Below are positions 4,453-8,229 of a DNA stretch of 13,347 bases, one piece after another. The first letter of the stretch is position 1, and each line of letters begins with the position of its first letter. This DNA is from a virus. Its lineage: Duplodnaviria > Heunggongvirae > Uroviricota > Caudoviricetes. Made by a program: the position numbers and the translations under genes. The notes beneath the pieces were generated by a model that saw only the letters and a list, made by a program, of their open reading frames with translations, searched no databases and had not been told where the DNA came from. The stretch is from IMG/VR virus record IMGVR_UViG_2713896781_000005; one strand, written 5' to 3'.

Positions 4453-5223
4453 ATGGAAACCGTATTGCATGCACTGAAAGCGATGGGTAAAGCCAATTCT
4501 GTTGAACTGGCGGCGCGGCTTGATATCAGCCGTGAAGAAGTTCTCAACGAACTGTGGGAACTCAAAAAAAATGGCGTTGTTGATAAAACGGGTCACACCT
4601 GGTTTCTGGCTGGCGAAGGTGAATCCCGGGTAACCGAAGAGCGGCCAGTAAAATCTGAAGCACAGGATATGCTGACCGGGGAGGTCGAACAAAAAGTTAC
4701 CGCAGACATGATGATTGAGTTTATCGGTCAGGATGGTGCTAAAACGTGTGAGGAACTGGCGGGTAAGTTCGGCGTCAGTACTCGCAAGGTTGCCTCCACG
4801 CTGGCGGTGGTAACCGCAACGGGGCGGCTGGCACGCGTTAATCAGAACGGTAAATTTCGTTACTGCATACCGGGCGCTGATTTACCGGCAGAGCCGGAAG
4901 CTGCATCGGTAACGGAAACCGATAGTAAAGCCTTTCCTCAGCCAACAGGTGTTGCGTTACCAGTCCGGGAAGCGGAAACACAGGAAGAAATAAAAACTGA
5001 AAGTGTGGCGGTCACAGTGCAGTCACAGCCGTCGTTCACCAGAAAGCATCCGGATGGTCTGATTTTACCATCGCTGCATGTGGCTAACCGCGAGCTGCGC
5101 CGGGCAAAAGGTCAGGTTCAGAAGTGGGAGCGTGTCTGCGCCGCGCTGCGGGAGCTGAACAAGCACCGGGATATTGTTCGACAGATTACTGATTCTTCCC
5201 GCCGTGTTGTATCGGAAAAGTGA
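4453..5223 (+). CDS. hypothetical protein with two tandem winged-helix-like modules, 256 aa
   Basis: GGAGGA before the ATG; two internally repeated segments (ANSVELAARLDISREEVLNELWELKKNGVV... and KTCEELAGKFGVSTRKVASTLAVVTATGRL...) each with an HTH-like signature. Confidence 0.6.
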   Translation: METVLHALKAMGKANSVELAARLDISREEVLNELWELKKNGVVDKTGHTWFLAGEGESRVTEERPVKSEAQDMLTGEVEQKVTADMMIEFIGQDGAKTCEELAGKFGVSTRKVASTLAVVTATGRLARVNQNGKFRYCIPGADLPAEPEAASVTETDSKAFPQPTGVALPVREAETQEEIKTESVAVTVQSQPSFTRKHPDGLILPSLHVANRELRRAKGQVQKWERVCAALRELNKHRDIVRQITDSSRRVVSEK

Positions 5224-5238
5224 TTGCCGGAGGCGCTT

Positions 5239-5631
5239 ATGGCAAAAGTATTTACACCAGAAGATCGGGAAGAAGTGACGGCGCGCATTGTGGAATTCGT
5301 GCGCCTGAGCGGACGAGAAACTTTTCGACAACTGGCAGATAAAACGGGTGTCAGTAAGACCGCTATTCGTCGTTTATCTGGTGCGCTTGCGGCCAGTGGT
5401 GATGTCTGGCTCTCTGGTTGCGGGGTATTTCCATCAGAGCAGGCGTATCGCGTATGGCGTAAGACACCGGAGAAGGCTGCTGACCCGACACTGATTCGAA
5501 AGTTACCTGACGGAGAAATACGTCGTTACAACAGACGGCAGAACATAATTTGTCGTGAGTGCCGCCAGAGCGAAGTTATGCAGCGTGTGCTGGCGTTCTA
5601 TCGGGGAAACTTTCAGGAGGTGATGGAGTGA
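5239..5631 (+). CDS. hypothetical winged-helix-like protein, 130 aa
   Basis: ATG at 5239 with GGAGG 5 nt upstream (track ORF begins at an in-frame TTG at 5224); ETFRQLADKTGVSKTAIRRLSGALAASG segment repeats the module of the upstream gene. Confidence 0.55.
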   Translation: MAKVFTPEDREEVTARIVEFVRLSGRETFRQLADKTGVSKTAIRRLSGALAASGDVWLSGCGVFPSEQAYRVWRKTPEKAADPTLIRKLPDGEIRRYNRRQNIICRECRQSEVMQRVLAFYRGNFQEVME

Positions 5632-5924
5632 GGGTGAGAGTTTATATTGCCGGTCCAATGACGGGATATGAAAATTTCAACCGTGAGGCGTTTCACAAGG
5701 CGGAAGAGGAACTGAAACGGGAAGGGCATACCGTCTTAAACCCGGCAGTACTTCCGGACGGGCTGACACAGCCGCACTACATGGATATTTGCATGGCAAT
5801 GATTCGTTGCGTGGATGCGATTTACATGCTGAATGGCTGGCAGCGGTCAGCGGGCGCTAAGGCAGAGCTGGCACTGGCGGAGAAACTGGGACATGCGGTG
5901 ATTTATCAGGAGGTGGCTCAATGA
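5628..5924 (+). CDS. DUF4406-family protein (nucleoside 2-deoxyribosyltransferase-like fold family)
   Basis: VYIAGPMTGYENFNREAFHKAEEELKREGHTVLNP...NGWQRSAGAKAELALAEKLG matches the DUF4406 signature as I recall it. GTG 5628 overlaps the upstream stop (GTGA) and follows GGAGG at 5616-5620. Confidence 0.7.
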   Translation: MRVRVYIAGPMTGYENFNREAFHKAEEELKREGHTVLNPAVLPDGLTQPHYMDICMAMIRCVDAIYMLNGWQRSAGAKAELALAEKLGHAVIYQEVAQ

Positions 5925-6640
5925 GAGAGGTTAACTATGAGGCGCTTCGTGAAGCAGCAGAGAAAGCAACTAAAGGATGCTACATCGTAGGGCATACATC
6001 GGGCAATCAGCATGGGAATATAACAGGAGTTTTTTTTTGTCAAAAATGGAAAGGAGAACCCGGTGGCGTAATTGCAGAATGTCACGTTAACTGCCTGGTT
6101 GAAACAGATGCTCAGGCTTACGCAAACGCTGAATTTATTGCTGCCTTTAATCCAAATGTTGCGCTGGCACTACTGGATGAACGGGAAAGAAACCAGCAAT
6201 ACATCAAATCACGCGACCAGGAGAACGAGGAGATTGCGCTTACGGAAGGGAAGCTGCTAATCGAAAACGGCCGGCTTGTTGCCGATACGCTACGCCACTT
6301 AGCTGATAACGAAATCGACTCTGATTATTTTGCTATCACCTCAACGAATGAGAACGGTACTGAAATTGATCATGAGATGGCTATTACCGATTACGCACTG
6401 CAAGCTGCCGGAACTGTAGACGAATTGGTTGCGGCGTTGGAATCCGCAGAGAATCGCATTGCAGAACTGGAAGCACGGGAAATATCGCTCCCAGAACGTA
6501 GCAGCATGCTTCATCGAACAGATTTTCACGATGATTACCAAACGGTAATGGCATACAAAGTTTCTGAAGTCATCGCTGCAATCCGCGCCGCTGGCATTCG
6601 CATCAAAGGAGAGGAGCATGGAAATAAAACCAGAAGATGA
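5921..6640 (+). CDS. Ead/Ea22-like family protein
   Basis: N-terminus MREVNYEALREAAEKATKG... resembles prophage Ead/Ea22-like proteins; ATG overlaps the upstream stop (ATGA). Confidence 0.55.
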   Translation: MREVNYEALREAAEKATKGCYIVGHTSGNQHGNITGVFFCQKWKGEPGGVIAECHVNCLVETDAQAYANAEFIAAFNPNVALALLDERERNQQYIKSRDQENEEIALTEGKLLIENGRLVADTLRHLADNEIDSDYFAITSTNENGTEIDHEMAITDYALQAAGTVDELVAALESAENRIAELEAREISLPERSSMLHRTDFHDDYQTVMAYKVSEVIAAIRAAGIRIKGEEHGNKTRR

Positions 6641-6974
6641 GTTAAGCAATATCGTTTTATTTCCGGTAAAAGAGGATGACCCACGTAATCAGGTTAATTT
6701 TCTCTATGAGCCATCGGAAAGACCATATTGCCATCACGCCTCTGTCCGGGTTGACGAAAAAGAGCGTCAGGTCCGCTGTAAAATCTGCGGTGCAGTTGTG
6801 GAGCCATTTGACTGGATGCTCTCTGTGGCGAAAAGAGAAACCAGACTGGCAGATGATGTAAGGATCTTGCGCCAGGAGGAACGGGAAAGGCGGAGAAATA
6901 TAGAAAAGCTAATTCAGATTGAGCGTAACGTGAAAGCGCGGATACGCAGGGTGACAAAATCCAGAACTGAATAA
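6618..6974 (+). CDS. hypothetical protein with CHH...CKIC zinc-ribbon-like motif and a basic C-terminus, 118 aa
   Basis: Strong RBS AGGAGAGGAG before the ATG; overlaps the upstream gene by 23 nt; Cys/His cluster seen in the translation. Confidence 0.5.
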   Translation: MEIKPEDELSNIVLFPVKEDDPRNQVNFLYEPSERPYCHHASVRVDEKERQVRCKICGAVVEPFDWMLSVAKRETRLADDVRILRQEERERRRNIEKLIQIERNVKARIRRVTKSRTE

Positions 6975-7022
6975 TTAAATTTAGCTCTGTTAAAAATTTA
7001 ATCCTTAACCGGAGGTATATCA

Positions 7023-7235
7023 ATGTCAAACGCACAGAAAGTTATTAACGCTGAAAAATATAACGAGTGGGTGAAAAAGTTCTCAGAGCAGATTTTTAAA
7101 ATTACTGGCGACGAGAATGCGGCAAAAAATGAATTAGAGCCGTGGACACCTGAAGGTGTCGACCCAAATTATTGCTGGTGGGATGTTGATCCAGTTGATG
7201 CTGCAAATGAAGCTATGAGTTATCACAACGATTAA
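7023..7235 (+). CDS. hypothetical acidic small protein, 70 aa
   Basis: GGAGG-containing RBS before the ATG; ORF followed by a GC-rich hairpin. Confidence 0.5.
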   Translation: MSNAQKVINAEKYNEWVKKFSEQIFKITGDENAAKNELEPWTPEGVDPNYCWWDVDPVDAANEAMSYHND

Positions 7236-7244
7236 TGTCAGGAG

Positions 7245-7262
7245 GCCGCCCGAAAGGGCGGT
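7245..7262 (+). other. GC-rich stem-loop with GAAA tetraloop (ccgccc-gaaa-gggcgg), no U-tract
   Basis: Perfect 6-bp stem seen directly downstream of the 7023..7235 stop; the missing T-run argues against a classic intrinsic terminator. Confidence 0.3.
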
Positions 7263-7435
7263 AATGAAAAGTGACTGAATTAACCAAAGAGAAATTAATC
7301 GAAGAAGCCAAATTAAAAATAGCGATTGCGAAATGCTACCCCAATTCAGGGATGGCACGGGTATAGGGCGAGTTATTCAAAATTGCACTGGCATAGCTGG
7401 AAGCAGATCCAGTTAAACGAGTTAACTCAGATCAG

Positions 7436-8149
7436 ATGCACCGAGTCTGCTTAGAAGCTAATCGCTATTTAGATAAATATGACGCGATGGCGAAAGAGGT
7501 AAATAAGTTGCTTGGACGCATCGCCCCGCCAGCGCCAGTATTTAACGGCGAATACGGTGACGCATATCAGGGCGCTCGTGAAGACCTGTCCATCTGGAAA
7601 CGGCGAGCGCTTGAAGCTGATGAGCACGTTCGGCGACTGGAGCAAATCAATGACCACATGGTGAAAGAGGCGCAGGGAGAATCACGCATGGGCGAGCCTG
7701 TAATACGTGAGCCAGCACCGGTAGTGCCTGAAGAAGCAACTCCGGAAAACGTAGAAATGCTCTCTGGCTATGTTTCAACGTACAAATTAACCGATAGCGA
7801 GCGCGATATTGCTGCCGAAATATGGAACGCCTGCCGCGCCGCCATGCTTCAGGCTGGAAACTTTCGGGAAAATAAGGGTTCGTCAACCAATAATTTTCGG
7901 GAAATCTCGGAAACGTCAACCAACTATCCGGTAACTCCGGATGGTTGGATAAGCTGTAGTGAGCGAATGCCGGATGATGGTCAGCACGTAATTATTTTAT
8001 GTGATGGCGCATTCGTTCTTTATGCGCAATATCGAGACGGTGAGTTTTTTGATGTAGTCCGTAATGGTGATGAATTTTTCGAAACACAGAGCCGCAATGT
8101 AACCGACTGGATGCCGCTACCAGAACCGCCGCAGGAGGTGCGCCAATGA
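7436..8149 (+). CDS. DUF551-domain protein (C-terminal domain), YdaW-like position
   Basis: C-terminal VTDWMPLPEPP motif is typical of DUF551 as I recall it; first in-frame ATG after the stop at 7394-7396. Confidence 0.6.
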   Translation: MHRVCLEANRYLDKYDAMAKEVNKLLGRIAPPAPVFNGEYGDAYQGAREDLSIWKRRALEADEHVRRLEQINDHMVKEAQGESRMGEPVIREPAPVVPEEATPENVEMLSGYVSTYKLTDSERDIAAEIWNACRAAMLQAGNFRENKGSSTNNFREISETSTNYPVTPDGWISCSERMPDDGQHVIILCDGAFVLYAQYRDGEFFDVVRNGDEFFETQSRNVTDWMPLPEPPQEVRQ

Positions 8150-8229
8150 TCTGGCCTGAAGCCTTTGCAATTACAGGCGTTGCTATAGCTATTGATTTTT
8201 TAGTATATGTTATTTGTCGGTGGGGGTAA
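8146..8229 (+). CDS. small hydrophobic peptide, 27 aa (MIWPEAFAITGVAIAIDFLVYVICRWG)
   Basis: My own translation; ATG overlaps the upstream stop (ATGA). Hydrophobic core is consistent with a single transmembrane helix. Not in the ORF track (too short). Confidence 0.35.
   Translation: MIWPEAFAITGVAIAIDFLVYVICRWG

Follow-up and report, generated by a model that had tools for sequence, protein, structure and literature searches.

The window analysed here, a 13,347-nucleotide (nt) stretch of viral DNA from IMG/VR record IMGVR_UViG_2713896781_000005, carries behind its replication genes a run of small plus-strand genes whose make-up changes from one related prophage to the next. We conclude that positions 4453–8369 are very probably a variable accessory segment of the rightward early operon, built as a patchwork of independently exchangeable cassettes and not as one system. 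The DNA of this block is 100% identical to E. coli O145:H28 chromosomes and to a few other Shiga-toxigenic E. coli (STEC) strains, and the source element can be placed as a Rac-family lambdoid prophage of E. coli O145:H28, a Shiga-toxin-type E. coli, because its DnaC-like protein is 75% identical to YdaV of the K-12 Rac prophage and its first block gene is 58% identical to YdaW. The segment would be made up of three layers: a replication-linked trio (g1–g3) of about 53% GC, usually right behind the replication genes; an AT-richer Ea22-family cassette (g4–g7), which in Shiga toxin (Stx) phages is located in the exo-xis region; and hydrophobic g8 and g9 at the conserved right edge before hok/sok. 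The cassettes would be swapped through recombination at gene and domain boundaries. Nine open reading frames (ORFs) fill the plus strand of the segment:

4453–5223, plus strand: g1, ATG start, 256 amino acids (aa), 29 nt after the DnaC-like gene
5239–5631, plus strand: g2, ATG start, 130 aa, 15-nt gap after g1
5628–5924, plus strand: g3, GTG start, 98 aa, GTGA overlap with the g2 stop
5921–6640, plus strand: g4, ATG start, 239 aa, ATGA overlap with g3
6618–6974, plus strand: g5, ATG start, 118 aa, 23-nt overlap with g4
7023–7235, plus strand: g6, ATG start, 70 aa, isoelectric point (pI) 4.4, 48-nt gap after g5
7271–8149, plus strand: g7, 292 codons from GTG 7271; the annotated ORF is 7436–8149, 237 aa from ATG 7436
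8146–8229, plus strand: g8, ATG start, 27 aa, ATGA overlap with the upstream stop
8265–8369, plus strand: g9, ATG start, 34 aa, hydrophobic, 35-nt gap after g8

An earlier, sequence-only reading of this DNA had pictured a mosaic block between the replication module and DUF968/rusA, and a comparison of related prophages bears out a variable island, bounded on its far side by the conserved genes hok, DUF968, rusA and Q. We anchored 80 IMG/VR viral contigs on the DnaC-like gene and mapped the window proteins onto them. The DnaC-like gene and rusA occur together in 46 loci, which yield 43 distinct intervals of 3.3–7.7 kb; these hold 76 ORF families and show 26 gene orders left of hok, and within the survey the window's own order is confined to copies of the same prophage lineage. 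The far side is conserved, with hok in 40/43 intervals and both DUF968 and the ORF upstream of it in 43/43, while g5, g6 and g7 are seen in 10/43, 6/43 and 5/43, respectively. In complete E. coli genomes (n = 5426), part of the block is found in 4288 and the whole block in 26; taken segment by segment, with partial matches as the denominator, the entire segment is present in 382/2789 for g1–g3, 37/3131 for g4–g6 and 39/2630 for g7. The best cover of the block by any single record of the phage collection is at most 29%.

Breakpoints in nucleotide similarity cluster at 5620–5630, 5910–5960, 6580–6590, 7020, 7240 and 7410, and each of these positions coincides with a gene or domain boundary. For such mosaicism the published mechanism is homeologous recombination carried out by phage recombinases of the Red/Rad52 type (PMC2327257, PMC3945230). 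Strain CAU16175 carries the same g1, g2, g5, g6 and g7 behind another replication module, one with DnaT-like and lambda-P-like genes. Alternative cargo in the slot includes further Ead/Ea22 variants, DUF7167, QueH, small acidic proteins to which no function has been given, and plain helix-turn-helix (HTH) proteins. In four loci (L027, L025, L026 and L039), the gene for QueH, an epoxyqueuosine reductase, occupies the slot (about 5630–8150) in place of the g3–g7 cassette.

The gene models themselves are well supported. The junctions given in the sequence-only reading (5221/5239, 5628/5631, 5921/5924, 6618/6640 and 8146/8149) agree with the ORF coordinates, and the families it named are recovered above the Pfam cut-offs, namely DUF1627 (2.8e-87), DUF977 (1.5e-40), DUF4406 (5.7e-38), Ead_Ea22 (2.2e-30) and DUF551 (5e-21). 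Its zinc ribbon in g5 gives a library match below cut-off, yet is backed by an invariant C38/H40/C54/C57 site. Its count of seven genes needs amending, however: the plus-strand genes are there, but one of them is a nonsense-disrupted gene, and two small membrane ORFs had been omitted. GGAGG or AGGAGG lies 5–9 nt upstream of all starts except ATG 7436. Median ratios of nonsynonymous to synonymous substitution (dN/dS) against relatives are 0.27 for g1, 0.11 for g3, 0.14 for g5, 0.15 for g6, 0.19 for g8 and 0.05 for g9 (the last from 2 pairs), and these six of the nine ORFs are therefore real coding genes; the g2 value is uninformative (0.83, 4 close pairs), and g4 and g7 have no usable pairs. 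The GC fraction is 0.52–0.53 in g1–g3 and 0.40–0.47 in g4–g6.

The Ea22-family cassette illustrates the exchange at the level of domains. The g4 protein belongs to the Ead/Ea22 family (PF13935, 2.2e-30; 106.5 bits against a cut-off of 27), the Pfam signature of which covers the N-terminal segment and the central coiled coil. It is 68% identical to residues 28–71 of lambda Ea22, and against Ea22 of the Stx2a phage ArgO145 its N-terminal 113 aa are 87% identical and its last 15 aa identical, whereas the middle differs. Published work describes Ea22 proteins as pro-lysogenic in lambda and Stx phages, reports a tetrameric state, and divides them into an N-terminal segment, a coiled coil and then a C-terminal domain that can be swapped and that in variant V2 is DUF551. 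Within g4 there is a T9 homopolymer at 6030–6038; the corresponding tract is T8 in RM12761, where g4 is annotated as a frameshifted pseudogene, and is interrupted in ArgO145. The T9/T8 tract could be a slip-prone on/off site, or else the difference could be a sequencing error in the RM12761 assembly.

The two genes that follow g4 both belong to PHROG families. The g5 protein matches phrog_1621 (1.7e-54), and its AlphaFold2 (AF2) model has a disordered stretch (residues 1–34), a small beta zinc ribbon and then one 55-residue helix (63–117). A Foldseek search with this model returned solely a non-significant match to the TFIIB zinc ribbon. Since ea8.5 follows ea22 in lambda, homology of g5 to Ea8.5 was considered and rejected, as there is no similarity. 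In E. marmotae protein P0340, an N-terminus and coiled coil of the Ea22 type are joined in frame to g5; g5 therefore behaves like another swappable C-terminal module, and the fusion suggests that it is one of the modules of the Ea22 type. The acidic g6 protein matches phrog_4659 (3.7e-50). A search of 1.84 billion representative proteins brought up just 7 relatives of it, which is not enough to build a useful model. The trio of Ea22, g5 and g6 also occurs in ArgO145, with the identical 23-nt overlap, in the leftward (pL) operon between the recombination genes and int. Therefore, the cassette moves between the pL and the rightward (pR) operons, always along the direction of transcription.

The last gene of the cassette, g7, has been inactivated: the annotated DUF551 ORF covers only the end of a 292-codon gene, which carries two amber mutations and is now in a pseudogene state. 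Upstream of ATG 7436 the frame is open back to GTG 7271, except for TAG 7364–7366 and TAG 7394–7396, and no Shine–Dalgarno (SD) sequence precedes ATG 7436. The intact 292-aa form is represented by protein P0001, with Glu and Ser at the two amber positions. Across the 5′ segment 7225–7445 the sole differences from strain CAU16175 are GAG to TAG and TCG to TAG, both of them G:C to T:A transversions. This junction is present in 41 E. coli records, 39 of which agree with the window at 99% or more and therefore most likely carry both ambers; intact 292-aa g7, as in CAU16175, is rare. The Prokaryotic Genome Annotation Pipeline (PGAP)/RefSeq annotates the 237-aa tail even in genomes in which the gene is intact. 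The full product starts with a 48-aa N-terminal module, continues through a helical middle and ends in a DUF551 domain (PF04448, 5e-21); g7 is classed as a DUF551-tailed modular protein of the Ea22_V2 type.

A GC-rich hairpin (GCCGCCC-GAAA-GGGCGGT, 7245–7262, plus strand) separates g6 from the GTG start of g7 and is identical in CAU16175 and locus L036. Folding of 7228–7285 gives a free energy of −18.3 kcal/mol with a z score of −3.7. A role as terminator was rejected, the hairpin being without a T-run and not called by the terminator scan. The 3′ arm and the weak SD-like GGGCGG of g7 overlap, and the hairpin might therefore limit translation of g7.

At the right end of the block, g8 encodes a hydrophobic peptide of 27 aa (MIWPEAF...VICRWG) that is predicted to be membrane-located. 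It is found in 47 related loci, with 23 nucleotide variants among which the peptide is preserved, and in nearly all 47 its ATG overlaps the upstream stop (ATGA) regardless of which gene precedes it; AGGAGG stands 7 nt upstream. The variable segment has its right edge at g8. The ORF is missing from the PGAP/RefSeq annotation. A link of the peptide to 121-aa DUF551 proteins that appeared in clustering was discarded as an artefact, since those sequences do not contain the peptide. The next ORF, g9 (WP_001278450.1), has an AAGGAGG SD and starts just beyond 8229, where the sequence-only reading had ended the block.

The trio at the left end consists of families with more informative relatives. The g1 protein is a DUF1627 protein (PF07789, 2.8e-87; phrog_630) with two winged-helix-like domains and a C-terminal helix, and is the full-length homolog of K-12 YdaW (58% identity over 154 aa, E 2e-60). 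YdaW had also been considered as the counterpart of the DUF977 protein g2, which was rejected because YdaW matches g1 instead. The g2 winged-helix protein (PF06163, 1.5e-40) matches phrog_142, "Ren-like exclusion protein" (1.7e-42); in a direct BLASTP comparison lambda Ren aligns at E 3e-9 and shares the C-terminal motif CRQS..M.RVLA.Y, and g2 is a homolog of lambda Ren. Its position downstream of the replication genes resembles that of lambda ren: g1 intervenes in the window, and g2 abuts the DnaC-like gene in many relatives, from which g1 is missing.

The third member, g3, is a DUF4406 protein (PF14359, 5.7e-38; phrog_355). Its AF2 model (predicted local distance difference test, pLDDT, 91.5) returns in Foldseek nucleoside 2′-deoxyribosyltransferases (NDTs), DNPH1 and the CMP N-glycosidases MilB/BcmB with probability 1.00 and query TM-scores (TMq) of 0.73–0.78. 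In the family (36 sequences) Y6, D53 and E80 are invariant, and they are placed like Y7, D62 and E88 of the C. thermalis enzyme, as judged by position and PDB entry titles. The model thus points to a minimal NDT/DNPH1-like protein with a Rossmann-like fold, for which nucleotide N-glycosidase or transferase activity is predicted. The superposed enzymes are 130–160 aa long against 98 aa for g3, and identity to them is 15–25%.

Several considerations weigh against the patchwork interpretation or limit how far it reaches. The survey sample is biased, its DnaC-like genes being at least 84% identical and mostly from E. coli, and the gene orders rest on crude ORF calls and on clustering at 30% identity. 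A single transcript, and every function assigned to a block gene, are things that we infer. The correspondence of the g3 residues to a catalytic Tyr/Asp/Glu triad is one of position, and PDB sequence searches with g3, using both the single sequence and a profile, gave no true match. Ren itself has been described as "likely involved in DNA replication" (Thomason et al.), and the frequency of g1–g3 next to the replication genes means that they are perhaps semi-core replication adjuncts and not accessory cargo.

This last point amounts to an alternative in which g1–g3 serve the replication module, in regulation or nucleotide supply, and only g4–g9 are exchangeable cargo. It fits the occurrence of g1, g2 and g3 in 35/43, 24/43 and 28/43 intervals, directly behind the replication genes when present, and the persistence of g1 and g2 behind the different replication module of CAU16175. 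The fold of g3 is a nucleotide-processing one. In lambda, ren comes directly after P, and its product interacts with Rex proteins alongside O, according to the same source that proposed the replication role (Thomason et al.). However, g1, g2 and g3 are each absent from many similar loci, an unrelated HTH protein stands in place of g2 in 16/43 intervals, and the g2/g3 and g3/g4 junctions are both sites of similarity breakpoints. Lambda ren is, moreover, dispensable for growth. On balance we consider this division of the block unlikely, and prefer to treat all three layers as exchangeable.

Within the patchwork interpretation, the products most likely modulate early interplay between phage and host, with g1 and g2 acting in exclusion or defence evasion, g3 in nucleotide chemistry and g4 in biasing the choice between lysis and lysogeny; each of these roles would follow from homologs or the fold. 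The claim that none of the genes has a settled function holds, as library and literature searches return DUF or "hypothetical" names only. Lambda ren confers resistance to Rex exclusion. K-12 YdaW, as a truncated allele, was a blocker in an overexpression screen of the retron-Sen2 RcaT toxin (preprint). Counter-defence roles for g1, g2 and g4 are plausible only by analogy with YdaW, Ren and Ea22. Going further, we consider it possible, if somewhat improbable, that at least one block gene specifically inhibits a bacterial immune or abortive-infection system. Under that reading, g1 would be a candidate for blocking retron or toxin effectors and g2 for countering exclusion, and g3 would be a candidate N-glycosidase acting on a nucleotide immune signal or a modified nucleotide so as to destroy it.

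A stronger form of this idea, that the block is a dedicated counter-defence island in which most or all genes inhibit the immunity of the host or of resident prophages and in which the shuffling reflects an arms race, would draw on the Ren homology of g2, the screen result for the g1 homolog, the high turnover of the slot and the small, acidic character of g6. It is also in keeping with a July 2026 preprint reporting Oad2, an inhibitor of OLD, from the modular recombination/ea region of lambdoid phages, where it is sometimes fused to EaD/Ea22 proteins, and with weak Oad2-like matches in Ead-like genes of the related loci L056, L080 and L082. However, tblastn and BLASTP searches for relatives of Oad2 (HK446 gp27) in the window were non-significant, so that no window gene matches it, and the defence libraries PADLOC and NCBIfam give only sub-threshold HTH similarities. 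The known phenotype of Ea22 is a lysogeny bias and not anti-defence, g7 is inactivated in 39/41 records (by the match of at least 99%), and the slot elsewhere holds QueH and plain HTH proteins. The YdaW evidence is itself a screen hit, from a preprint, with a truncated K-12 allele. A dedicated island thus seems to us distinctly unlikely. It is highly improbable that the block represents non-functional DNA decaying in a cryptic prophage: the two ambers of g7, the frameshift-prone T9/T8 tract of g4 with its pseudogene in RM12761, and the lack of the whole region from K-12 Rac would agree with decay, but the remaining ORFs are intact with strong SDs, dN/dS is 0.05–0.27 for six of the nine, and the flanking prophage keeps its integrase, replication, Q and lysis genes.

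The accessory segment, read as a patchwork, shares features with several known systems. The sequence-only reading had called it equivalent to the nin region of lambda (ren and ninB–ninI, between P and Q), and in position this stands: the slot is the same, with replication genes upstream and a Holliday-junction resolvase and Q downstream. The nin region is likewise part of a rightward early operon of small, tightly packed genes with ATGA-type overlaps, and the window has a Ren homolog. In content the equivalence fails, since no homologs of NinB, C, D, E, F, G, H or I were found in 4453–8229, and neither Pfam nor PHROG gave a nin-gene hit for any ORF up to 8369. The tR2–tR4 terminators of lambda make late expression N-dependent, whereas the block has no predicted intrinsic terminators equivalent to them, and the window differs further in that hok/sok and DUF968 separate the block from rusA. 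Half of the block has its counterpart in content in the exo-xis (ea) region of lambda and Stx phages, which shares the Ea22-family g4 and, in ArgO145, the g4-g5-g6 trio, and its Ea22 variant V2 ends in DUF551 as g7 does. In contrast to exo-xis, the window cassette lies in the rightward (pR) operon behind the replication genes and not leftward between exo and xis, homologs of orf60a, orf61, orf63 and orf73 are absent, and g5 is unlike Ea8.5.

With the ydaS-ydaT-ydaU-ydaV-ydaW region of K-12 Rac the window shares the order of cro-like gene, YdaT, initiator, YdaV-like ATPase and YdaW/DUF1627. K-12 Rac differs by a deletion from mid-ydaW to rzpR; it is therefore without g2–g9, and its YdaW is a truncated, fused remnant. 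The C-terminal DUF551 domain of g7 is common to YfdS of CPS-53 and other DUF551 proteins, whereas the N-terminal parts differ and the window copy has two amber codons. DUF551 acts as a portable domain in prophage early regions.

As for expression, there is a promoter-like site at 1942–1969, and after induction transcription from about this position would read through cro, ydaT and the replication genes into the block. A consensus scan, which does not reach Rho-dependent sites, found no terminator-like plus-strand site within 4453–8229; between 1969 and 8700 such sites are limited to a weak match at 3610 and another site at 8320. Read-through across the block from the early rightward promoter is therefore plausible. 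The genes had been called translationally coupled, which as worded goes beyond the evidence. Four junctions do overlap (GTGA, ATGA, 23 nt and ATGA) and one has a 15-nt gap, and around g6 the chain is interrupted twice, by 48 nt and by 35 nt. Many phage operons have stop/start overlaps, and such overlaps alone do not demonstrate coupling. Considering the strong individual SD at each start other than ATG 7436, coupling is permitted by the overlaps but not required. Each gene would thus be translated from its own SD, the overlaps reflecting compact packing and perhaps some coupling.

The genes on either side of the block agree with a prophage that has kept its core. RefSeq gives the order int, xis, RecE-like exonuclease, dicB, repressor, cro-like, YdaT, O-like and DnaC-like upstream of the block, and hokD, DUF968, rusA, Q, methyltransferase, tRNA, esterase and lysis genes downstream. 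The anchors on the two sides are:

3683–4423, plus strand: left anchor, DnaC/YdaV-like replication ATPase, 75% identical to K-12 Rac YdaV (PGAP: ATP-binding protein), outside the variable block
8446–8621, plus strand: right anchor, hok/sok (hokD) type I toxin–antitoxin locus, Rfam sok 118.5 bits, hokD annotated in RM12761

The hok/sok region spans about 8390–8780 of the window, and DUF968, rusA and Q come after it. A mask of 16 N at 8635–8650 stands for 148 nt of hokD coding sequence, and downstream coordinates are therefore shifted relative to the real genome. A second mask, of 50 N at 9618–9667, stands for 42 nt within the DUF968 gene, and because of it the ORF list shows DUF968 as split. 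Within 4453–8229 Rfam gives no match to any RNA family. Downstream of the methyltransferase it places the small RNA (sRNA) STnc100 at 13048–13256 on the plus strand (175.6 bits) and AgvB, an anti-GcvB sRNA, at 13257–13318 on the minus strand (92.5 bits). A tRNA-like Rfam match at 12869–12928 (37.3 bits) lies where RefSeq has a tRNA-Met in RM12761, and ARAGORN predicts none anywhere in the window. The Pas sRNAs, which have been reported close to DUF1627 and RusA genes, were considered for the block and rejected, since they adjoin esterase, holin and lysis genes.

The region is of an already known kind, an instance of well-documented lambdoid mosaicism whose genes are in public annotation and in Pfam and PHROG families. 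Two corrections to that annotation follow from the analysis: what is listed as a DUF551 gene belongs to a 292-codon gene disrupted by ambers, and RefSeq lacks a 27-aa ORF that is widely conserved. The practical value lies in a short list for experiments, comprising the Ren homolog, the full-length YdaW, the predicted 98-aa NDT/DNPH1-like enzyme and the Ea22 cassette. Accessory genes of this early type can influence induction, lysogeny and phage resistance towards other phages, and if a block gene does inhibit immunity, the shuffling of cassettes between the pL and pR operons would be a way in which such inhibitors spread.

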